Made by a program: the position numbers and the translations under genes | The notes under the pieces: generated by a model | Told to the model about the DNA's origin: nothing | The model's input: the letters and a program-made list of their open reading frames with translations, nothing else | Databases searched by the model: none | Part shown: positions 2,956-51,992 of the stretch, in pieces | How positions within the stretch are numbered: the stretch's first letter is position 1 | How the letters are laid out: the number at the start of each line of letters is the position of its first letter | Source of the DNA: a virus | Taxonomy: Duplodnaviria > Caudoviricetes | Length of the DNA: 51,992 nt | Virus record (IMG/VR): IMGVR_UViG_3300048586_000159 | Span: 1-51,992 of that record | Direction: 5' to 3' (one strand)

Positions 2956-3608
2956 GATGGCGAAACCCGGCTCTTAATGAAGAGATAGGCGCCGACCGCG
3001 AAGGCAATCACGAGGATCACAGCCAGGGCGTATTGCAGCGGCCCGTCCCCGGTGAAGGCGAAGCCGAGCGACGAAACAATCCCCGCGCCCCAAGAGATGT
3101 TTTCCTTTGTGGCAATGGCCGGGGCGGTTGGCTTGGCCTCGACAAAGTTGGACGAGACGAAATCGCCCTTCGCCCAGAGGCCTGCCTCTGCCGATCGGCG
3201 GTTGACGAGACCCTGCACGCGCTTGCCGCCTGCGTTTACCCACTTCATCAGCTCGACCGGCACAGCATCGTATTGCCGAGCGTTCAGCTTCTTCAGCAGC
3301 GTGGACTTGTGAAGGGCCCCGGTGTTGAAGTCGAACGAGACGAGGGTGGCAAACTGGTTTTCGGTCAGCGGGACTTTCACAAGCCGGTCAACCCGCTCCT
3401 CGAAAACGCGGAGGTCAGCACGCAGAATTTGCTCTGCTTGATCCTCGCTAATAACCATCCCCTTGTAGACTTCAGGGGCTCCTGCTGCAGAAGTATGTCC
3501 GTATCCAATGGTCCACGGCTCACCTGCGAAGTTTCGATAAGCCTTTAGCTTCAGCCCTTCCCACTGCTTGATAAGCTGCAGCTCCGCCGCGTTAATGCGT
3601 CTGGTCAT
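2952..3608 (-). CDS. Endolysin, GH24 lysozyme, with C-terminal TM segments
   Basis: WEGLKLKAY...WTIGYGHT, QFATLVSFDFNTG and GLVNRRSAE motifs; hydrophobic C-terminus. Confidence 0.9.
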   Translation of the reverse strand: MTRRINAAELQLIKQWEGLKLKAYRNFAGEPWTIGYGHTSAAGAPEVYKGMVISEDQAEQILRADLRVFEERVDRLVKVPLTENQFATLVSFDFNTGALHKSTLLKKLNARQYDAVPVELMKWVNAGGKRVQGLVNRRSAEAGLWAKGDFVSSNFVEAKPTAPAIATKENISWGAGIVSSLGFAFTGDGPLQYALAVILVIAFAVGAYLFIKSRVSPS

Positions 3609-17208: not shown

Positions 17209-17796
17209 CTAGTCCAGCCAAGCCCAGCATTCTCTTCGTTGCGTTCGAGTGATCGTGGAATGGGAAACACCAAAACGCTCCGCCATCTGACGGGTACTAA
17301 GGCTCTGCGAAGACCTGCGGATTTCCCGCACGTCATCTTCAGTAAGTTTGGAGTGCTTCAACGCCGTGCCGCGCAGGAGCGTACCGTGCTCCACTTTGTC
17401 GGCGTGGTTTTCAATCGTGGTCGCCCATCGCAAGTGCTTTGGGTTCACACATCCTTCGTCGCCTTTCCCACAGGAATGCGCTGCTTCGTGCTTGGGCGAC
17501 GGCGCTGGACCGTGAGCCATCTCGCACATCATTCTGGCTGCTGTAGTGGACTGACCATTGGGCTTCTTTAACGCCCCGTAGCCGCTGACCGTTCTACCAA
17601 ACGGCCATTGAAGGCAACCATCGCCATGGTAAGAAACGTTTTCCTCAAGCCACTTTACCAAAGTGCCATTGGCTGGCTTGTGCACAATGTTGCAGTCTCC
17701 GTATCGCTGCCAGCGACGGTAGTGCATCCCGCACCATCCGCGCTTTTCAGCGGGCTTGCAGCAATTGTGAATCGAGCATAGACGGGCATTAGCCAT
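17209..17796 (-). CDS. HNH endonuclease (Zn-binding N-terminus, C-terminal HTH)
   Basis: CSIHNC...WCGMHY, CLQWPF and AAHSCG...CVNPKHLRWAT..EN motifs. Confidence 0.88.
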   Translation of the reverse strand: MANARLCSIHNCCKPAEKRGWCGMHYRRWQRYGDCNIVHKPANGTLVKWLEENVSYHGDGCLQWPFGRTVSGYGALKKPNGQSTTAARMMCEMAHGPAPSPKHEAAHSCGKGDEGCVNPKHLRWATTIENHADKVEHGTLLRGTALKHSKLTEDDVREIRRSSQSLSTRQMAERFGVSHSTITRTQRRECWAWLD

Positions 17797-17870
17797 TTCG
17801 ACCTCCACAACAGGTTGGCTTGGTTAGAGCCCGTCGAGAGGTGAGATGCTCGACGGGCTTGCTTTTTATA
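17791..17870 (+). ncRNA. Putative SymR-like cis-antisense RNA, copy 1
   Basis: AGCCAT..ACCTCC..CAGGTTGGCTTGGTTAG, then a GC hairpin and T-tract. Upstream CTTGCA-N17-ATAGAC at 17755-17783. Confidence 0.6.
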
Positions 17871-17896
17871 CCTGATGGGTGGAAGTAGAGGAAGCC

Positions 17897-18686: not shown

Positions 18687-19109
18687 TCACTGGTTAAAGG
18701 ATACGTATTCGACGGACACGGGCACCTGGACGTAGCCCACGTCCTGCAGCGGTGATGCTACGTATGGCTTGCGGCCGATCTTCACCTTGATGCCCTGTCC
18801 TTGGAGGACGGTGCCCTTGGCGAAATGCTTGATGATGCGGTCGGCCACGTCGAGCGGCTTCGTGATCCCGGCCCCGGCCTTCCACCAGACCGAAATCTGT
18901 AGGATGCCTATGTGCTGCTGATGCCCCGAGCCCACTGTCCGCGTGATTGTGCGGTTGGGAACGAAAGTGGCTTGCAGGTAGCTATCCGGCTTCGTGCCGC
19001 CATTGGGAGGGAAGTTTACCCCAGGATATGCGATCGGAAGTGCCGGAGTGAGCGCCGCCAGCTTGCCGAGGAGCAAATCCATGATGATTGCGTCCGTGCC
19101 TACGGCCAT
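18687..19109 (-). CDS. Tail terminator-like protein (DUF4128-like)
   Basis: IAYPGVNF.P, GILQISV and VPVSVEY motifs; position before the tail tube gene. Confidence 0.75.
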   Translation of the reverse strand: MAVGTDAIIMDLLLGKLAALTPALPIAYPGVNFPPNGGTKPDSYLQATFVPNRTITRTVGSGHQQHIGILQISVWWKAGAGITKPLDVADRIIKHFAKGTVLQGQGIKVKIGRKPYVASPLQDVGYVQVPVSVEYVSFNQ

Positions 19110-19122
19110 GCTACCGGTTCCT

Positions 19123-19320
19123 ATGCCTTCAAAGCCGCCGCTCACACGCAACGAGGTTTACGATCTCATCCACGATCTGTGGGTGAGAGCCGCACGCGAG
19201 CGAGGGGCTGATGAATACAGCGAGAACACCCTGAAGGCGGTCCGCGTGTCGTTGTTTATGCTAAGCGCTGCATTGCTCAAGAAGACCGATGACGACGCTA
19301 CAGCCCAAACCGAGCTTTGA
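19123..19320 (+). CDS. Small hypothetical protein (65 aa), opposite strand
   Basis: MPSKPPLTRNEVYDLIHDLW... fills the intergenic gap; no clear SD. Confidence 0.5.
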   Translation: MPSKPPLTRNEVYDLIHDLWVRAARERGADEYSENTLKAVRVSLFMLSAALLKKTDDDATAQTEL

Positions 19321-19351
19321 CCTCTGCGGCCTTAGCCGAGACGATCTGCGA
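19298..19351 (-). pseudogene. Remnant 3' end of the gp10-like gene (SQIVSAKAAEVKARFGL*)
   Basis: Matches the current C-terminus QQIVSAQAASVKQRFGL* of 20374-20829 and begins directly after the HNH stop codon. Confidence 0.8.
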
Positions 19352-20284
19352 CTAAATCAACCAACCCCACCGCCGCCCTCTTGCAATGTCAGATACAGTT
19401 ACGCGGCTAACACCAAATCGATTTGCGATCTTACGCTGCGTCTCATGTCCAAGAAGCTTACGAATGGCGATAACATCGTCCTCGGTGAGTTTAGCCTGAC
19501 CATTTCGGGATCCTTTGTTTTCCGTACCATGAATTACTCGGTCATCCGCGTTTCCTTGAGTGGTATCCCACCGCAAATGATGTGGGTTAACGCACCCTAA
19601 ATGACCTTGCCCGCAGTTATGCGCCGCTTGATGCGTTGGCGATGGTGGATCCCCGTGCACCAGTTCGCACATCACTCTGTGAGCATAGCGCTCGCCACCG
19701 TCTGACCCACGAAGCTTTCCATACCCGCGACCGCCGCGCTTGGGTTCGTGCCTTGCGAATGGCCAGATCAAACAATCATCAGTATCCGCGTGATCAGCAT
19801 GACTCCTGAGCCATAAATCAGGCTCTCCTTTCGACGTTGCCCCCGCAGTTGCGTCACCGTACCGCAGCCACCGTTCATAATGATCACGACAGTAGCCTCG
19901 CACATGCGCTGGCGCATTGCAGGCGTCGATGCTGCACAGGCCGGAATTCTCGGCGTAATATTTCCCGCCTAGTGGATTGCCGTGATTTCTGAAGCGCTGG
20001 TAGTGCGGGTTGCAAAATCCCTTATGCTTGACCGGACGCTCACACCCGTCAACGGCGCAAGGAACGTCTTTTGGTTGATAATGCGCTCCTCCATTAGGCG
20101 AACCGTGCCTTAGAAGCCGCAGATAGTGCGCGTGGCAAAGACCCTTAGTTCTGGCCTTTTCTAGGCAACCATCTGTCGAACATAAGGGCATTTCACGAAG
20201 GGCATGATAGTGCGTAACGCACCACCCTCGGGCTAAAACAGGCTTGCAGCAACCATCAATTTTACATAGGGAATTAGTAGCCAT
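19352..20284 (-). CDS. HNH endonuclease with four tandem CxxxxC...CxxHY repeats and C-terminal HTH
   Basis: Repeats CKIDGC, CSTDGC, CAVDGC and CSIDAC; AAHNCG..GCVNPHHLRWDT..N. Confidence 0.88.
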   Translation of the reverse strand: MATNSLCKIDGCCKPVLARGWCVTHYHALREMPLCSTDGCLEKARTKGLCHAHYLRLLRHGSPNGGAHYQPKDVPCAVDGCERPVKHKGFCNPHYQRFRNHGNPLGGKYYAENSGLCSIDACNAPAHVRGYCRDHYERWLRYGDATAGATSKGEPDLWLRSHADHADTDDCLIWPFARHEPKRGGRGYGKLRGSDGGERYAHRVMCELVHGDPPSPTHQAAHNCGQGHLGCVNPHHLRWDTTQGNADDRVIHGTENKGSRNGQAKLTEDDVIAIRKLLGHETQRKIANRFGVSRVTVSDIARGRRWGWLI

Positions 20285-20357
20285 TTCGACCTCCGAACAG
20301 GTTGGCTTGGTTAGGGCCTCGCGGTGTTGACGCACCGTTTGAGGCCCGTTTATTTTA
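20279..20357 (+). ncRNA. Putative SymR-like cis-antisense RNA, copy 2
   Basis: AGCCATTTCGACCTCC..CAGGTTGGCTTGGTTAG, hairpin with GGTGTTGACGCACC, then a T-tract. CTTGCA-N17-ATAGGG at 20243-20271. Confidence 0.62.
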
Positions 20358-20373
20358 CGAAACAATCCCCTTA

Positions 20374-20829
20374 TTACAAGCCGAAACGCTGCTTCACACT
20401 AGCGGCCTGAGCCGAAACTATTTGCTGCCATCTCTGCGCAACGAGCGTCACCCACGGTCGCGGTGCCATATCCTGGGTGCCGAAGTGGACGTAGGCCCCA
20501 TATTCGGCCGTGTAGCCGAGATAAATCGTATCCCCCAGCTCAGCATCGCTGATGATCAATTCGGTCTGGCTGAAGTCCGGAGTGACTGTCACGCCCGGGT
20601 TAGACCGGTTCAAGGTGGGCATGCTGGCATTCGAAGCCATGATCGAGTCCCGGAGGAACTGGGTTCGCTTGTAGTTCGGGCTCTCCGGTGTCTCGTAGAT
20701 CATGCTCCCGAGCTGCTCATCCAGTTGCTTCACAAGCTCCTGAAGGCTCTCCTGAAAGACCGCCTCTTCGGCTTCCTTCACTCGATTGACGAAATTCCCG
20801 ATGGTTGCGGAGAACGAGAGCTTAGCCAT
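20374..20829 (-). CDS. HK97 gp10-like neck/tail-completion protein
   Basis: RTQFLRDSI and YTAEYGAYVHFGT..MAPRPW motifs. Confidence 0.8.
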   Translation of the reverse strand: MAKLSFSATIGNFVNRVKEAEEAVFQESLQELVKQLDEQLGSMIYETPESPNYKRTQFLRDSIMASNASMPTLNRSNPGVTVTPDFSQTELIISDAELGDTIYLGYTAEYGAYVHFGTQDMAPRPWVTLVAQRWQQIVSAQAASVKQRFGL

Positions 20830-21872
20830 CAGGTCGATGTCCTAGCCCGATATCGCCGCAAACCAGCCGCGATATAGTTGATTGTATAGATCGCCTGGCA
20901 TTTGCAGCCGATCTTATGGGCAGCTGGCGCGTTCGGATCATGAGGATGCATGAGCATGGTCCCATCCGGCGCGATGAACGGCTGATCCATCCTGACCGAC
21001 TGTCCTGCCATTGCGATATGCTGGATGCGCGGGTTTTCCGAACCGTTGTGCTTCCATGTCTTCGTCACGTCCTGAACAGCAATCTTGCCCGCCTCGATCT
21101 GCTGCCGGATTGCGTTGTCCCGAGCCGAGAACAGTGCGGTACGGGTTTCCTGAAGGCCGATGGTGTCGCCCCGCAGCTTCAGGTTCTTGTCGGACAGGCG
21201 GCCGATGATCTTCGAGGCCATAGCCTCATCAACCGGCGTCCCTTCCCGAATGGCCTTCAAGACAGTGCGGTCGTAGCGCTTGTCGCGCATCTTCATCGCG
21301 AGGTAGCGCTGCATTCCCTCGACGTTGCCCTCTAGGAGGCTTCCGCGTGCTCGTTCGATAAACTCCACCTGCCGAGCAGTAAGGCCGATCACGCCGCCTT
21401 CTCTGCGTCCGGTTACCCTGTTGACCCTGCCCACCACATCAAGGGCAGTCTTCGTCGGGTTCTGCCCGCGCGACAGGCCGCTCTCGAACGCGATGCGCAG
21501 CGCCTCGCGCTGATCCTCGACAATGTTCGTGACTAGCGTGGCTGCCTGGGTCCGCAGGATGCTCTCAGCGATCAGGTTGCGGACGCCGAACTGAAACAGC
21601 ACCCGCGTCCCGTCTGGAGCAACCAACTGAGGCAGGCTCTGCACCATGTTGATGCCGCCAGCGTTGAACGCTTCCTGCAATGCCAACTCAAGGGCCGCGA
21701 AAGCCTCCGGTTCAAACTGGATTGCCCGAACTGCGGCGGCAACGTCTCCGCGATCCAGCGCGGTAACAACCGTCTTGAGCACGATGTTGCTCTTGATCGC
21801 CTCGATGCTATCCAGAAAGGCAGCGGCCACGATAGGATCGTATTTGGCAAGCAGTTCGTCAAAGGTCATCAA
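20829..21872 (-). CDS. Minor head/head morphogenesis protein (Mu F/SPP1 gp7-like)
   Basis: KTWKH...PRIQH..MAGQ.V...PF...MHPHDP..IGCKC motif. Confidence 0.8.
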   Translation of the reverse strand: MMTFDELLAKYDPIVAAAFLDSIEAIKSNIVLKTVVTALDRGDVAAAVRAIQFEPEAFAALELALQEAFNAGGINMVQSLPQLVAPDGTRVLFQFGVRNLIAESILRTQAATLVTNIVEDQREALRIAFESGLSRGQNPTKTALDVVGRVNRVTGRREGGVIGLTARQVEFIERARGSLLEGNVEGMQRYLAMKMRDKRYDRTVLKAIREGTPVDEAMASKIIGRLSDKNLKLRGDTIGLQETRTALFSARDNAIRQQIEAGKIAVQDVTKTWKHNGSENPRIQHIAMAGQSVRMDQPFIAPDGTMLMHPHDPNAPAAHKIGCKCQAIYTINYIAAGLRRYRARTST

Positions 21873-21995: not shown

Positions 21996-22008
21996 GCTGA
22001 TCCCATAA

Positions 22009-22032
22009 GAAAAGGCCCACCGAAGCGAGCCT
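22009..22032 (-). terminator. Intrinsic terminator after the HNH pseudogene
   Basis: AGGCTCGC-TTCG-GTGGGCCT followed by a T-run on the minus strand. Confidence 0.6.
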
Positions 22033-22057
22033 GACTAGTGTTCGATGACGAAGGCGG

Positions 22058-22711
22058 CTACCCAAGCCACCTCCATGTCTTCTGGTTAGCAACGACAAAG
22101 GCCGTCTGATAATGGATGCCAAACCGCTGAGCCATTTCAGCGTAAGGTACTCGTCCCTTATTCTCCCGCATCCATCGGACGTCATCCTCTGAGAGCTTCG
22201 AGCAATGGATGCCATCACCTTTAGGCATCGTCCCATGGTCATACTTGTCCATGTGGTTGGGCGACCTCTAAGGCTGCATCTGGAGCGCAGCCATGCGCCA
22301 ACTCGCACATAACGCGATGAGCGCCCGTCTGCCTGCCTTGGTAGGTGACTGCTCCATACCCGCCGACTGCCCCGCCATAAGGCCACAGCAAGCAGTCATC
22401 GCCATCGTGGGTGACGTGGTCCTCTATCCAAGCAATCAATGCCCCCGGTGAGGCCCGCCCACCAAGTGGCTCCCCATGGGCGCGTAGGCGCTGATAATGC
22501 CGACTGCGGCATGCCTCCCGTTGCCTACTGCGACCTTAACCGTGAACGTGCGGCTTTTTTGCTTACGCGCTGTTAGGATCTTCGGAACTTTGGGTCTTGG
22601 CCTGTTGGGACCGGAAGGCCGCCAGCTTCTTATCCGGCCGAGACTGCTGGCCTCATACCCATCATAACCCTCTACAGGGCGCCATTCTTCTGCTAGAGCG
22701 TGATCAGCCAT
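22058..22711 (-). pseudogene. Disrupted NUMOD4-HNH endonuclease
   Basis: NUMOD4 (EEWRPVEGYDGYEASSLGRIRS), then a frame change to HYQRLRAHG...CLLWPY...AHRVMCELAHG, then loss of the HSC..CVNP.HLRW core with a second frame change to NHMDKYDHGT. Confidence 0.75.
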
Positions 22712-22785
22712 CTCTACCTCCTTACAGGTGGGGCTTGGTGAGAACCCGTCGAGAGGTGAGATGCTCGGCGGGTTCGCTTTTTATA
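22706..22785 (+). ncRNA. Putative SymR-like cis-antisense RNA, copy 3
   Basis: AGCCATCTCTACCTCCTTACAGGTGGGGCTTGGT, then a hairpin nearly identical to copy 1 and a T-tract. Confidence 0.58.
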
Positions 22786-22791
22786 GCCGAT

Positions 22792-23196
22792 CTACGAAAT
22801 CAAATCCAACTCATAAAGCACCGGAACCCCTGCGGGACTCAACGGCTTTACATTGAGCAGCTCCACCCACGCGCTACTCTCGCTGGCTTCCTCAGCAGTG
22901 ATGCCAAGCGCAACCTTGTAGCTCTTGAGCGGGACGGCATCAGGATCGGCCGTCACGGTCAGCATGTGCTTGGTCTGCCCTATCAGCGTGCCGGACTGAT
23001 CCCGAATCTCTTGGTAGCCCTCCACGCAATGGAGTGTCTTGTATGTCGGCGGCTCCTCAACCGGGTCATAGGGCGGCCCGGTGATCGCGCCGGGGATGCG
23101 CAGCGTCACGGGGTAGCCATCAGCCTGAGATACGTCGCCGATGGAGCGGATTGCCTCGTCAACCTCGGCAGCTATGGCGCGCCAGTCTTCCATCAC
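22792..23196 (-). CDS. Head closure/head-tail adaptor protein
   Basis: Position; VKPLSPAGVPVLYEL C-terminus. Confidence 0.7.
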   Translation of the reverse strand: MMEDWRAIAAEVDEAIRSIGDVSQADGYPVTLRIPGAITGPPYDPVEEPPTYKTLHCVEGYQEIRDQSGTLIGQTKHMLTVTADPDAVPLKSYKVALGITAEEASESSAWVELLNVKPLSPAGVPVLYELDLIS

Positions 23197-24436: not shown

Positions 24437-24958
24437 TTATGCTGGGCGGAAGAACTGCCCGTGGTGCTTGACTGCGAAAGCATCTCTCGCACGGGCCGCC
24501 TCTTCGGCTGTGTCAAAAAGTCCGAGGTTCACTCGTCTTCCGCCCGCCCTTGCTCTGGCCAACCATTTCCCTGATCGGCGGTCGAAATTGACGCCCTTGA
24601 ACCCGCTGGTGTTGCTGCTCTTTAGGGGGAGGTTCGCGTTATTCTCGCGCGGTGTGGCTAAGCGAAGGTTCGCGAACCTGTTGTCCCGCTTGTTGAGATT
24701 GACGTGGTCGATCTGCTGTTTCGGCCATTTGCCTGTCATGTAAAACCATGCAAGCCGATGCGCATAATATCGATGCCCGTAAACGCTTACGCGCCAATAC
24801 CCATGGACGCCAAAGCCGCCTGCATCTGTACCGGCAACTCGCCTATGTGAATTTGTTATCAGCCACCGAAACTCGCCGCCAATTGGATCGTACTCAAGAG
24901 CTTCTTTCAGCTTCGATTGCGTAAGATCGCGCGGGGCGATAATCTCGCATTCAGCCAT
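24437..24958 (-). CDS. HNH endonuclease with AP2-like domain
   Basis: AHRLAWFY..IDHVNLNKRDNRFANLRLAT; NTSGFKGV..KWLAR..LGLFDTAEEAA. Confidence 0.9.
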   Translation of the reverse strand: MAECEIIAPRDLTQSKLKEALEYDPIGGEFRWLITNSHRRVAGTDAGGFGVHGYWRVSVYGHRYYAHRLAWFYMTGKWPKQQIDHVNLNKRDNRFANLRLATPRENNANLPLKSSNTSGFKGVNFDRRSGKWLARARAGGRRVNLGLFDTAEEAARARDAFAVKHHGQFFRPA

Positions 24959-25034
24959 CTCGACCTCCTTACAGGTGGGGCTTGGTAAGAATGGCCGGAT
25001 GTGTTGGTAGCACTCCGGCCATTCGTTATTTCTA
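24953..25034 (+). ncRNA. Putative SymR-like cis-antisense RNA, copy 4
   Basis: AGCCATCTCGACCTCCTTACAGGTGGGGCTTGGT, then hairpin GAATGGCCGGA..GTGTTGGTAGCAC..TCCGGCCATTC. TTGCGT-N17-TAATCT at 24917-24945. Confidence 0.62.
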
Positions 25035-25038
25035 CAGC

Positions 25039-26007
25039 TTATTTGGTGACATCGCCAATCGTAATCACCCCAGCCGAATGTTTAATAGAACTTGCTACGA
25101 GGTCCCAGTTGGCCCCCGTAGCAAGCTCCGCGTCGGTCGGCGACTTGCCACCGGAACCTTCATCCCATGTGAAGCCCTTGAGGCCGAGGCCGAAGGTGTA
25201 GTCCACCTGCAGGGTCGTCTCGATGCGGGTCTGACCGTTCTTCGTCTCTATGTTCGAGATGATGTCACGGCTGTCCGAGACGGTGGCGGCGTTCGCCACC
25301 AGCGACAGCACCTTGAGCTTGTTCGGCGTGCCGGCCTCGTACAGGGCGGGCGCGTCGGTGACGACGACCATCTTGCCGAGGATATCGACCACGCGAACGT
25401 TGGCGGCCTGGAACAGGGTCTGCGCATTGGCGAGGTTCAGGCCGATCAGCTTGTGATAGGCCGTACCATTCATCACCTGCGTGATGAGATTGCCGGAATG
25501 GTCGCCGAACTTGGCGTGGGCATCGTTCATGGTGATGTAGCTGACGCCGGCCGTGGCCGACACGTCATTCGTGGCCGCGGCCTGATTGCTGATCGCGGCC
25601 ACCAGCGCGGCAATGGCGCTGTTGAGCTGATCGCGAAGCAGCGCCTCGGCGAAATTGCGGGAGGCAACCTCGACGCCCTCGGCCGTCGGCTTGTCCAGCC
25701 AGGTCATCTGCGAAGGCTCATAGCGCACCGGGCCGAAGCCGCCCGCGACCTTGACCGAGGAGTGCTTGAGCTGCGTCAGGTCGGTTGCCGAAGCGCTGGC
25801 CTGAGCAGCATAGCGGTCAACGCGACGCTGAGCCGAGTGGATGGCGGCGTAGAACGATTCCTGGAGGAAGTCGCCTTCGAAACCTTCCGTGGTCAGGCGG
25901 ATCGCGCCGCCGGATGCCGCGTTGAACTTGTCGACCATCTGCGCAAGCGTCTCGATGGTGGCGGGCATGAAGTACTTGTTGAAGACCTGCATCTGCGAAA
26001 GAGACAT
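25039..26007 (-). CDS. Major capsid protein
   Basis: 322 aa after the scaffold gene; FNAASGGAIRL and GLGLKGFTWD...KSPTDAELATGANW motifs. Confidence 0.88.
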   Translation of the reverse strand: MSLSQMQVFNKYFMPATIETLAQMVDKFNAASGGAIRLTTEGFEGDFLQESFYAAIHSAQRRVDRYAAQASASATDLTQLKHSSVKVAGGFGPVRYEPSQMTWLDKPTAEGVEVASRNFAEALLRDQLNSAIAALVAAISNQAAATNDVSATAGVSYITMNDAHAKFGDHSGNLITQVMNGTAYHKLIGLNLANAQTLFQAANVRVVDILGKMVVVTDAPALYEAGTPNKLKVLSLVANAATVSDSRDIISNIETKNGQTRIETTLQVDYTFGLGLKGFTWDEGSGGKSPTDAELATGANWDLVASSIKHSAGVITIGDVTK

Positions 26008-49386: not shown

Positions 49387-49733
49387 CGGCGCTACCGAAT
49401 GTTTTCACACCTGAACAGGTTGCCTCTCACGTCGGCTGGTCTCCCCGCAAGCTGAGGGAGTTTGCCAGAGAGATTGGAGCGTGTAGGATTTTGGGAAACC
49501 GTATGGTTCTCACGCAGTCCGACATTGACGCAATTCTGGAAGCCAGCAGACCATGCCCCTCACCCTCTACAAGCGCCCCGGCGGGAAAATCTACCACTAT
49601 CGCGGCACTATCAACGGGCAAAGGCTACGCGGGTCTACTGGAACTGCGAAGAAAGCAGTCGCAGAGCGCTTCATCAGTCAGCTCGAAGAAAAGCAGTGGA
49701 AAGGTGATCTTGATGGGCCGGGAGCCATCCTGA
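49383..49733 (+). CDS. Excisionase-like HTH protein (3' part overlaps int)
   Basis: FTPEQVASHVGWSPRKLRE...DIDAILEA, directly before int. Confidence 0.65.
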   Translation: MTALPNVFTPEQVASHVGWSPRKLREFAREIGACRILGNRMVLTQSDIDAILEASRPCPSPSTSAPAGKSTTIAALSTGKGYAGLLELRRKQSQSASSVSSKKSSGKVILMGREPS

Positions 49734-50563
49734 GATTTTCCGACGCCGCGATGCATTATCGACAGGCGCAACGATCTCATCGGTTTTTACCGCTTGTCGA
49801 GGACTACTGGAAAGACACCCTCGTCAAGGAAATATCATCTGGCGCAGTCCGCAAGGCCGCAATGGCGCTGTATCCCAACGCATCTGGCGCAACACGCAAT
49901 CGGCATGTCATCGTCCCCACGCAGGCCGTCATAAATCACGCCGCATCCCTTGAGTTGTGCCAGCGTCTGAAGGTCGAGAGGTTCCCCGAAAATTACAAGG
50001 TCAAAACTCCCGTCACATGGGAATGGGTATGCGCATTTATGGCGGCGTCGAATCCACACTTGGGGGCCTTGGCATGCTTCATGTTCCTAACGGGGGCAAG
50101 GATTAGCGAAGCACTGGATCTTCAATGGGCCGATGTCGATCTCGCCAAAAGACGGTCCATCATCCGGCAAACCAAGATTGGCAGCGAGAGAAACGCTCAC
50201 CTGCCTGTCGCCCTGGTTACGGCCATAGCGAACATAGAAGGCGACAGAAACCCCGCGGCATCTGTCTTCAAATATTCAACACGCAACACATGCGCGCCTC
50301 AATGGAAGAAGGCATGCAAGCGCGCCGGAATACCGTTTCGCAGCTTTCATTGCTGCCGGCACGGCTTCGCTACCGCGCTTCTTCACAAGGGCGTGGACCC
50401 GATTACCGTGGCAAAACTTGGGGGGTGGAAATCTGCGCAGCACGTCTTCGAGACCTATGGTCACGCTATGACTGACGACACCCTGGCAGATAAGATTGCT
50501 GACACGCTACAGACACAGGCCAGCGAAGAAATAATAGATTATGATAGGGAATCAAAAGCTTAG
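49553..50563 (+). CDS. int: Tyrosine recombinase (integrase)
   Basis: TGARISEAL, TK, FHCCRHGFAT, LGGW and YGH catalytic motifs. Confidence 0.93.
   Translation: MPLTLYKRPGGKIYHYRGTINGQRLRGSTGTAKKAVAERFISQLEEKQWKGDLDGPGAILRFSDAAMHYRQAQRSHRFLPLVEDYWKDTLVKEISSGAVRKAAMALYPNASGATRNRHVIVPTQAVINHAASLELCQRLKVERFPENYKVKTPVTWEWVCAFMAASNPHLGALACFMFLTGARISEALDLQWADVDLAKRRSIIRQTKIGSERNAHLPVALVTAIANIEGDRNPAASVFKYSTRNTCAPQWKKACKRAGIPFRSFHCCRHGFATALLHKGVDPITVAKLGGWKSAQHVFETYGHAMTDDTLADKIADTLQTQASEEIIDYDRESKA
50500..50517 (+). repeat. Arm-type site copy within the int 3' end
   Basis: TGACACgctacAGACACA. Confidence 0.5.
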
Positions 50564-50566
50564 GGG

Positions 50567-51244
50567 TTGCAGATGCACCGCGAAACGATCAAATCACTAA
50601 AAGCAAGGTCTGTTGATCTACGGTCGCTATCTCTACTGCTTGACTGCGCGGAAGATCATGTTTCCGGCCTCTTGTCCGGGTCTGTTTCTCCATCATCTAG
50701 AGAACGGGCCATACTGCGGCTTTGTGCCAATGTTGTAGATACGAGGCTGAAAAACATCCTCTCAGAGTTCGAGGAAGAGAACGGGTGGAGGATAATCCCA
50801 GGGTTTTCCGCCTACGAAATAAGCCGCAGTGCACAAGTGCGTAGGAGAAAGTCGGGCCATGGGTCTCTGCCAGGACTTGTCCTGAAGCCCCGCTTCAGAG
50901 GAAAGCATCTAGTCGTAAACCTTGCGTCAGATGATCGGGGAATACGATCAGTCTTCGTGCATCAGCTTATGTGCGCAACGTTTCACGGCCCGCAACCAAG
51001 CCCTAGGCACATGGTCTGCCACAAGAACGATGTCGGCGACGATAACAGGCCAGAGAACCTTTATTGGGGAACGGCTGCTGATAACCGGCGCGACATGGAG
51101 AGAAACGGGCTTGTTGCGTTTATTGACACACAGGAGACACAAAGGGCGATAAGAGAGGGTGGAAAACCCCTCCAGGAACTTAGGAAAAGAAAAAAGAAAT
51201 CAATGCTTTATAGGCTTGATAGGATGGCAAAAATGGGGACTTAA
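50567..51244 (+). CDS. NUMOD4-HNH endonuclease between int and att
   Basis: WRIIPGFSAYEIS; VHQLMCATFHGP..VCHKNDVGDDNRPENLYWGT..N. Confidence 0.82.
   Translation: MQMHRETIKSLKARSVDLRSLSLLLDCAEDHVSGLLSGSVSPSSRERAILRLCANVVDTRLKNILSEFEEENGWRIIPGFSAYEISRSAQVRRRKSGHGSLPGLVLKPRFRGKHLVVNLASDDRGIRSVFVHQLMCATFHGPQPSPRHMVCHKNDVGDDNRPENLYWGTAADNRRDMERNGLVAFIDTQETQRAIREGGKPLQELRKRKKKSMLYRLDRMAKMGT
51124..51141 (+). repeat. Arm-type site copy near the right att core
   Basis: TGACACacaggAGACACA, about 110 bp from the core. Confidence 0.55.
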
Positions 51245-51401: not shown

Positions 51402-51992
51402 CTACCAGAGCGGGACACGCAGGCCGACGCGGAATTCGTGCTTCTGGATGCCGCGGTCGCGGACATCCATGCCACCCGCCCCCGAGCGGAAGGCGTCGCC
51501 GCCGGCAATGTCGGAGAAACGGTAGCCAAAGTCGAGCTTGATGTTGGAGGCAAGGTCCATGGACGCACCGGCCATCAGGGCATAGGTGAAGCGCAGGCCA
51601 TCCTGCCCCGCAAGCCGCACTCCGGGGCAACCCGCCCCGCCGCAGGCGGCGTCGCGCCAGTCGAGATAGGTCGCCCCCAGCCCCACGCCGACATAGGGCG
51701 TGAAGCCGGCGAGCGTGCCGAGATCGACATAGCCATTGGCCATCACGCCGGCGGCGGAATAATCGGCCTTGAAGGCGCAAGGCCCGCCGGCACAGGCGGC
51801 GCTGCCGCGAAAATCGTCCTTGGAATAATCGACGGTTACGTCGGCGCGCGCCAGATCGTTGAACTGGTAGCCGAGGCCAAGGCCATAGGAGAGCGGCCGG
51901 GAGAAACGGCGCTCGTCGAATTCCTGCGTTGCGCCGGCTTGCGTGATGCGCGGCCGCCCGCCCTTGATCCAGCCGGAATAGCCGAGGTCGCC
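51402..51992 (-). CDS. Host outer-membrane beta-barrel protein (partial; 5' part lies beyond window end)
   Basis: GDLGYS..GLGLGYQFN..RADVT..MANGYVDLG...TPYVGVGLG...HEFRVGLR. The frame is open to the window end. Confidence 0.85.
   Translation of the reverse strand, partial: GDLGYSGWIKGGRPRITQAGATQEFDERRFSRPLSYGLGLGYQFNDLARADVTVDYSKDDFRGSAACAGGPCAFKADYSAAGVMANGYVDLGTLAGFTPYVGVGLGATYLDWRDAACGGAGCPGVRLAGQDGLRFTYALMAGASMDLASNIKLDFGYRFSDIAGGDAFRSGAGGMDVRDRGIQKHEFRVGLRVPLW

Follow-up and report, generated by a model that had tools for sequence, protein, structure and literature searches.

We present the case of an HNH nuclease gene that lies between two versions of the end of one phage structural gene. 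The window, meaning the whole stretch of DNA analysed, is the complete IMG/VR virus record IMGVR_UViG_3300048586_000159, with a length of 51,992 bases and an estimated completeness of 96%; its head-tail genes are on the minus strand. At the locus in question, all features are on that strand except for one convergent gene. A gp10-like tail-completion gene (20374..20829) sits between a Mu F-like gene, its upstream neighbour (20829..21872), and a tail terminator gene, the next structural gene downstream (18687..19109; PF13554, E 1.9e-30), after which the gene order continues with the tail tube gene. The gp10-like gene consists of a body of codons 1-134 (20428..20829), which aligns end to end with 98 relatives, and of 17 further codons, QQIVSAQAASVKQRFGL, closed by TAA (20374..20427). 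We refer to these 17 codons as the current end; on its similarity to a second locus described below, we treat it as a probable replacement linked to the nuclease cassette. There follow a promoter-like site identified by consensus scan (20352..20379), a leader hairpin GGGCCTC...GAGGCCC predicted from folds and 19 leaders (20314..20347), and a conserved leader core CCCTAACCAAGCCAAC with Shine-Dalgarno sequence and start codon (20282..20316; GGAGG at 20290..20294, ATG at 20282..20284). The HNH nuclease gene occupies 19352..20284. In frame after its stop stands a second version of the gp10-like gene end, SQIVSAKAAEVKARFGL and TAG (19298..19351), which we call the remnant and regard as the likely displaced original 3' end. 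The convergent small gene, encoding 65 residues, is on the plus strand (19123..19320; phrog_20321, E 1.1e-5).

The gp10-like protein matches phrog_169, 'tail completion or Neck1', with an E-value of 5.6e-15. Against TIGR01725 HK97-gp10 it scores 23.2 bits (cut-off 30.8), and a Pfam search of the protein gives no match; its relatives are named 'HK97 gp10 family phage protein' in their source records.

The nuclease gene starts at ATG 20284 and encodes 310 residues. The mechanical list of open reading frames (ORFs) had given TTG at 20365 as the start, which we replaced. The protein includes four CxxxGC..GxCxxH fingers, an HNH_3-like domain and a C-terminal helix-turn-helix, with a putative catalytic His and Asn motif. 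It matches phrog_5351 'HNH endonuclease' (E 5.1e-42) and phrog_3593 (E 9.5e-24), and it scores 19.3 bits against Pfam HNH_3 (E 8.9e-4), below the gathering score of 24.8. Annotated HNH endonucleases from phages of Rhizobium and Sinorhizobium are 41-47% identical to it. A tblastn search with the nuclease returns 250 phage records, and the matches listed fall under genes annotated as HNH endonuclease. It is also 47% identical to a second HNH protein in the window, where ...CVNPHHLRWDTTQGNADDR... of the nuclease aligns by eye with ...CVNPKHLRWATTIENHADK... of the second copy. A sequence search of the PDB matches only the C-terminal helix-turn-helix, and the nuclease domain has no match to a solved structure.

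The nuclease gene stands free, with no intron or intein around it. The host gene ends in TAA TAA, and the nuclease ORF begins 89 bases further on, unfused, with its own leader, ribosome-binding site and ATG. Rfam, run over 19000..20900, finds no intron family and nothing at gathering level. Insertion into a coding target without splicing, as first proposed by a sequence-only reading of this DNA, agrees with these results.

The duplicated gene end

The gp10-like gene ends with TGG CAG CAA ATA GTT TCG GCT CAG GCC GCT AGT GTG AAG CAG CGT TTC GGC TTG TAA. The stop of the nuclease ORF is the TAG at 19352..19354, and the same frame continues after it with TCG CAG ATC GTC TCG GCT AAG GCC GCA GAG GTC AAA GCT CGG TTT GGG CTG TAG. 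By codon alignment, the current end and the remnant agree in 13 of 17 residues and in 32 of 51 bases (36 of 57 if one also counts the stop and the codon ahead), so that the two copies are alike as protein and diverged as DNA, just as the sequence-only reading had it. The remnant has a local score of 59. In favour of a fortuitous likeness between short peptides, the match is only 17 codons long. When the 243 bases 3' of the HNH stop were shuffled 2000 times by mononucleotide, no shuffle reached that score (maximum 47), and in a six-frame scan of the whole window the runner-up site scores 28. Chance is excluded as the explanation.

The duplication of the gp10-like gene end is real and peculiar to this nuclease gene. 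For the three HNH genes of the window that were tested, the upstream gene end is repeated downstream only here (score 62 vs at most 22). The gene upstream has no second copy of its end past the nuclease stop at any of 14 further nuclease loci with the leader (best scores 25-47).

The GC-rich remnant and AT-rich current end of the earlier description correspond to a contrast that is real and modest in size. GC content is 0.61 for the remnant vs 0.55 for the current end; at third codon positions it is 0.71 vs 0.59, with core genes at 0.75 and nuclease genes at 0.56. Codon usage was also tried as a discriminator, with the current end at the 4th percentile of core 17-codon windows, and was dropped since the contrast is too weak to carry weight. 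The same description had called the 3' end "recoded". That word implies too much design: by its sequence, the new end seems to be a divergent homologue that came from a different phage lineage.

Occupied and empty alleles

Scans with the gp10-like protein produced 17 viral, 8 genomic and 15 metagenomic loci. Among them, in every locus whose 3' end is readable, one metagenomic locus (L043) excepted, the gp10-like gene is followed at once by the tail terminator or a convergent small gene. The DNA tally uses 25 empty alleles, which comprise 16 distinct DNA sequences. It leaves out loci that are cut (L016, L050 and L052), loci with 35-39% identity and another tail type (L017-L022, L029, L030, L049 and L051), L046 with an unrelated tail, and the occupied L043. 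All 25 empty alleles lack a nuclease gene between the gp10-like gene and the next gene, and a regular-expression scan of 60 relative loci finds a leader with a nuclease gene in L043 only. The presence of the nuclease gene at the homologous site is sporadic, with two occupied alleles (the window and L043) vs 25 empty ones.

The sequence-only reading had expected the 3' ends of relatives lacking the nuclease to match the remnant. In protein, the comparison favours this reading. A search over 5.8 billion proteins gives 98 relatives, of which 75 are nearer the remnant, 11 are nearer the current end and 12 are ties. The seven nearest (identity 0.69-0.79 over window residues 1-135) all follow the pattern, with tails that agree with the remnant in 13-15 of 16 positions and with the current end in 11-12 of 16. 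For the nearest relative of all, P0002, with 79% body identity and the tail QIVSAKAVEVKARFGL, these values are 15/16 and 12/16, and the tail of P0019 is that of the remnant (16/16). The window's own current tail is found in 0 of the 98. Thus the downstream copy fits the relatives better than the upstream copy (7/7 nearest, 75/98), which supports the remnant as the native-type gene end and the probable displaced original.

In DNA, the expectation holds as a trend: ten of the 16 distinct empty alleles are nearer the remnant, five are nearer the current end, and one is a tie. The trend is not decisive because the empty alleles are too distant, with protein identity of at most 66%. No closer DNA relative, above 66% protein identity, turned up in viral, genome or metagenome contigs or in a scan based on P0003, nor in 401 sampled genomes each at order and at family level. 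Neither the region nor the leader has a blastn match among isolate phages, and the viral contigs searched contain neither the exact 21-mer of the current end nor any instance of a degenerate pattern encoding the remnant peptide. Seven sequencing runs contain 5-9% of sampled words. Four runs gave a few contigs of 118-224 bases at depth 2-3, none of which spans the junction of the HNH gene and the remnant; a contig of run X3 (20289..20406) is identical to the window through the leader and the current end.

The second occupied allele, L043, is on a metagenome contig of 244,750 bases. Its gp10-like gene ends in ...VKQRFGL*, and the last 21 bases are those of the window's current end. After the gene end come a hairpin at the matching position, the identical 16-mer CCCTAACCAAGCCAAC, a ribosome-binding site and ATGGCT, which opens a gene for an HNH protein of 333 residues. 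The tail terminator starts 1 base past the nuclease stop and there is no remnant. Over the first 134 codons, the window and L043 agree in 244 of 402 bases (61%), which is the joint second lowest value among ten relatives compared. Over the last 17 codons the agreement is 39 of 51 bases, the highest of the ten, and over the last eight codons it is 23 of 24. The Ile codon of the QIV motif is ATA in both occupied alleles, while the 16 distinct empty alleles have ATC (14) or ATT (2) and the remnant has ATC. In core genes, ATA accounts for 4 of 94 Ile codons.

An empty allele, L009, shows the switch in L043 itself. L009 belongs to a prophage type that also includes L025 of Aquamicrobium terrae. L043 and L009 agree in 88 of 90 bases over alignment codons 101-130 (29/30, 30/30 and 29/30) and then fall to 22/30, 12/30 and 8/12 past codon 130; the body as a whole is 83% identical, and the last 17 codons are 49% identical. 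In the base-by-base alignment, the switch is just after ...CCTTGGGT, a few codons ahead of where the window's remnant starts, and the L009 gene end, QQIVAQKAAEVKARFGL, is close to that remnant. From this sharp drop, the gene end beside the L043 nuclease gene is demonstrably foreign to the gene body, as judged by alignment. A mosaic boundary at the nuclease gene, seen between L043 and L009 and between the end and the body in the window, is what co-converted flanking DNA would be expected to leave. These comparisons support a current end that travels with the nuclease cassette and would be foreign to the window's gene body. On the far side of the L043 nuclease gene (4550..4700 of L043), the first ~23 bases of the tail terminator appear by eye to be like L009 and L041, and the next bases like L007. 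The L043 nuclease gene may lie between two exchange boundaries.

Tails of the L043 type, EIVSTVAARVKQRFGL, also occur in the protein clusters P0027, P0029, P0037 and P0045, and 4 of the 11 protein relatives nearer the current end bear such a tail. One of the clusters with an L043-type tail is named Aquamicrobium terrae, a species that also has the empty allele P0025/L025. The two may be a natural pair of occupied and empty alleles.

The remnant has a context of its own. The convergent gene, of phrog_20321 and unknown function, is conserved in L006/L038 and L101, where it overlaps the intact gp10-like end by 32 bases (L006) and 47 bases (L101). In the window, the overlap is with the remnant and takes in the convergent gene's last 23 bases. 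With this overlap, which mirrors that of the gene ends of L006 and L101, the remnant appears to sit in its native context. The remnant may have survived because the convergent gene overlaps the old end, an explanation that reaches no further than 23 bases of the remnant's 54. Had the end been cleanly replaced, the end of the convergent gene would have been rewritten as well; an insertion upstream of the overlap that carries a spare end would leave both genes whole. L043-type phages have the tail terminator immediately after, and in them the old end is cleanly replaced. The convergent gene opposes the whole structural module, and it also overlaps the start of the tail terminator.

The same comparisons bear on the reverse polarity, in which the current end is native and a unit of leader, HNH gene and donor pseudo 3' end was inserted just past the stop. 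A mosaic junction alone does not tell which side is native, five of the 16 distinct empty alleles are nearer the current end in DNA, and some empty alleles, L012, L040 and L041 among them, have KQRFGL tails too. What makes this polarity quite unlikely is that the seven nearest protein relatives all end like the remnant; that the current end has the 21 identical bases, the ATA codon and the leader in common with L043; that the remnant runs on into the convergent gene, as the gene ends of L006 and L101 do; and that none of the 14 other leader-bearing nuclease loci has a gene-end copy after its stop. We therefore keep the remnant as the probable native end.

A third arrangement would have the gene end duplicated in tandem in situ, with later divergence and a nuclease gene that arrived without any foreign end. 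Both copies have an open frame and equal length, as such a duplication would give. They differ in 19 of 51 bases even though the adjoining nuclease ORF is intact; the upstream copy is specifically L043-like and contiguous with the common leader; L043 is a replacement without duplication; and tandem near-identical ends without a nuclease gene are not seen among the relative loci examined. We judge this course of events very unlikely and prefer a current end that came with the nuclease gene.

The leader of the nuclease gene

The sequence-only reading described the mobile unit as a replacement 3' end, an antisense cassette and the HNH gene. The link between the end and the cassette agrees with the comparisons above, and the middle part is a sense promoter-like site and 5' leader. 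The promoter-like site has its -35 box, TTGTAA, in the last codon and stop of the gp10-like gene and its -10 box is TAAAAT, with 9 of 12 matches in the consensus scan. In 19 aligned leaders, a TAnAAT-like box stands at constant distance ahead of the hairpin. Across these 19 distinct leaders, which were gathered from viral contigs, one metagenome contig and the window, 7 of the 13 predicted hairpin pairs are maintained through two-sided changes. The 16-mer CCCTAACCAAGCCAAC is found exactly in 36 viral contigs, most of them with the whole leader; 36 contigs is about the rough chance estimate for a 16-mer in a collection of that size. The core's AGCCA has its complement, UGGCU, in the start region of 17-19 of the 19 leaders. 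Since these pairs barely vary, no covariation test is possible for them; if formed, they would hide the AUG.

Rfam has no family for the leader. On the opposite strand, the symR family (RF01809) gives a match at 20279..20350, plus strand, over the leader, the ribosome-binding site and the start codon. As in SymR, the weak match is on the strand opposite the ribosome-binding site and start codon, with a hairpin followed by a U-rich stretch, here GTTTATTTTAC. The fold z-score is -4.2 on the plus strand vs -2.2 on the sense strand. Membership in SymR antisense RNA was rejected at 22.8 bits (E 0.19), far under the gathering score of 61, and we saw no convincing antisense promoter by eye opposite the leader. 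The 89 bases between the gene and the nuclease are better read as a putative promoter-like site with a conserved 5' leader than as an antisense cassette.

There is a further possible pairing in this region. The last codons of the gp10-like gene include CGGCTTG (20374..20385), complementary to CAAGCC of the leader (20303..20308), in both occupied alleles; the L043 counterpart is at 3445..3456 with its core. The minimum-energy fold of the window's sequence uses this pairing, and read-through transcripts and transcripts from the cassette promoter might therefore fold differently.

A covariance model of the leader, R1, scores 79.3 bits at this site and finds four copies in the window (61.9-79.3 bits), each ahead of a nuclease gene. 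The copies include the promoter-like site, the hairpin, the ACCAAGCC core, the Shine-Dalgarno sequence and ATGGCT, and are on the minus strand at 24950..25046, 22703..22797, 20276..20369 and 17788..17882. The four leader-nuclease units are at gene boundaries in the structural module, directly after the capsid, head closure, gp10-like and tail tube genes. The nuclease gene after the capsid gene (24437..24958) is HNH-AP2-like by eye, and another is at 17209..17796. The one at 22058..22711, on the minus strand, is broken into three frames (22436..22711, 22239..22439 and 22058..22252). It has a NUMOD4 motif and an intact leader, and it looks like a decaying homing endonuclease. Past this broken gene there is a weak match to the leader model on the opposite, plus strand (22005..22090; 16.1 bits, E 0.0026). 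In run X3, two short contigs at 20279..20318 share only 30-36 bases of the leader core and diverge on both sides, consistent with further leader copies in other contexts.

HNH proteins with roles in phage DNA packaging are known. Under that precedent, the HNH genes here could be domesticated phage functions, such as packaging nucleases, with the duplication as a by-product of mosaic recombination. Four copies at different head-tail gene boundaries, one of them broken by frameshifts, are hard to reconcile with such a role. None is shown beside a terminase (the terminase gene was not located), the nuclease gene is missing from the 25 empty relatives analysed, and the L043 nuclease lies at a recombination breakpoint. 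Domestication is unlikely, and we continue to regard the nuclease as a probable homing endonuclease.

Beyond the window, the model finds the leader in 25 of 151 sampled genomes from the family of Aquamicrobium sp. LC103. For 12 genome leaders, the ORF that follows was labelled by eye: four are nuclease-like, one is integrase-like, one has no assigned function and six are unresolved by pattern. As seen by eye in the 19 leaders and in L120-L131, the leader precedes several HNH architectures (finger with HNH_3 and helix-turn-helix, HNH-AP2, and classical HNH). Possibly, this leader is a regulatory RNA module of selfish genes that has yet to be described.

Near the right end of the window there is an integrase. 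By eye, 49553..51244 holds a tyrosine-integrase-like gene followed by a fifth HNH-like gene without a leader, and 51402..51992 holds a reading frame, still open where the record stops, that is reminiscent of an outer-membrane beta-barrel protein. The integrase-like gene and the beta-barrel-like frame suggest a prophage boundary inside the record.

Proposed mechanism and known systems

We propose, with a probability of about 0.78, that an HNH homing-endonuclease cassette entered the gp10-like gene some 17 codons before its stop, bringing a donor end and displacing the resident one. The cassette would consist of a donor copy of the last ~17 codons, the promoter-like site, the structured 5' leader and the nuclease ORF. 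The donor copy would be joined in frame to the resident body, so that the gp10-like gene remains full length, and the resident last 17 codons would be pushed 3' of the nuclease stop, where they would persist as an untranslated remnant. In a first step, the nuclease would have cut or nicked an empty allele in the conserved block ...GCN CAG CGN TGG CAG CAR ATC GTN...; the junction falls in codons 129-137, which among empty alleles are one of the gene's two best-conserved stretches of DNA. Repair would then have used the donor as template, beginning at a homologous crossover in the gene body and continuing through the nuclease gene. The right-hand join would be illegitimate, at or near the break, and the remnant would for that reason begin there. 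The donor end differs within the conserved block (ATA vs ATC/ATT) and so may resist cleavage; such differences may protect occupied genomes.

Several results weigh against this reading. The contrast in codon usage between the two ends is weak (4th vs 17th percentile). Only two occupied alleles were found, the window and L043, of which L043 has no remnant, and the two nucleases have only the N-terminal CxxxGC..GxCxxH finger in common. The first 9 of the 17 replaced codons agree with L043 in 16 of 27 bases, which is no better than the gene-wide 61%. No empty allele above 66% protein identity was obtained as DNA, and the 98 protein relatives are sequences without genomic context, any of which may come from an occupied allele. 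Promoter-like sites are not enriched with respect to shuffles (2 found, 1.4 expected). Finally, the leader is by eye also ahead of an integrase-like ORF (L124) and an ORF with no assigned function (L127), and is therefore not specific to nucleases.

A broader proposal, of which we are doubtful as a whole, would make this a self-contained element of a ~17-codon end, promoter, structured leader and nuclease that invades the coding region of a structural gene. In it, the end would both repair the gene and block re-cleavage, and the start of the remnant would mark the cut site. The portable leader would mask the start codon (AAGCCA/UGGCU), with a possible cis-antisense partner, and would be common to unrelated HNH architectures and to other selfish genes in the family's prophages. 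Taken as a whole, the interpretation of the sequence-only reading is partly supported.

To our knowledge, free-standing homing endonuclease genes of phages have been thought to be intergenic only, unless they are in an intron or intein. The locus described here would represent a third solution in a phage, in which the element brings a spare gene end and can thereby occupy a wider range of sites. A displaced in-frame gene end after a nuclease stop would be a readable footprint by which to find such elements, and the remnant-type and current-type ends are a natural pair of target alleles for tests of cleavage specificity and immunity.

In Aeromonas phage Aeh1, nrdA is reportedly split into two polypeptides that reassemble, unlike the gp10-like gene, which is in one piece and for which the cassette is thought to supply a new end. 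The gene inserted within the Aeh1 nrdA is mobE (PMC3045599), like our probable one an HNH homing endonuclease gene in a phage coding gene without intron or intein. In T4-type phages, intronless homing is described for the free-standing SegB, SegE, SegF, SegG and MobE (PMC2988022; also PMC2790892 and PMC2330249). The resemblance to those systems includes a free-standing phage nuclease gene and flanking DNA co-converted with it, for which the L043 breakpoint is a candidate counterpart. A cleavage site is expected in the neighbouring conserved gene and not at the insertion point. In T4-type phages, the translation of homing endonucleases is known to be restrained by RNA structures (PMC2988022), with expression controlled through structure around the ribosome-binding site, as is predicted here. 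The T4-type genes are intergenic, unlike ours, and the parts of these papers that we draw on describe no retained duplicate of a gene end; cleavage and preferential inheritance were shown there, while here they are predicted. Nuclease genes are also reported at boundaries of genetic exchange between phages (PMC10448857). That work concerns other phages, and our case would resemble it in that the nuclease is exactly at a switch of relatedness (L043 vs L009, and the body vs the end in the window).

The closest likeness is to the mobile ORFs (mORFs) that bring a foreign C-terminal coding end into fungal mitochondrial genes (PMC3630166). The cases given there include atp6 of Allomyces macrogynus, atp6, atp9, cox2 and nad3 of Glomus sp., atp9 of Rhizopus oryzae and cox2 of Mortierella verticillata, and related remarks on mobile ORFs with a foreign C-terminus appear in PMC7487136. 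Our literature searches found a spare-end arrangement described for fungal mitochondria only, with no phage example, which is not proof of absence. As in the mORF cases presented in that source, a protein gene has received an endonuclease gene close to its 3' end, the C-terminal codons that came with it are in phase and complete the protein gene, and the apparent native C-terminus remains downstream as a duplicate. The two copies are distant as DNA (63.5% for Glomus atp6, 63% here) and close as protein, and the native copy fits the relatives that lack the endonuclease. The differences are that the host here is a prophage of an alphaproteobacterium and not a mitochondrion, and that the nuclease is of the HNH type, while theirs are LAGLIDADG or GIY-YIG. 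Also, the ORF here is unfused, with its own promoter-like site, leader and ribosome-binding site, while that of atp6 is fused, fusion not being universal among the fungal cases; and the remnant here is shared with a convergent gene. By analogy, then, the locus seems to work like a fungal mitochondrial mORF, in a phage and with an unfused, separately controlled HNH gene.

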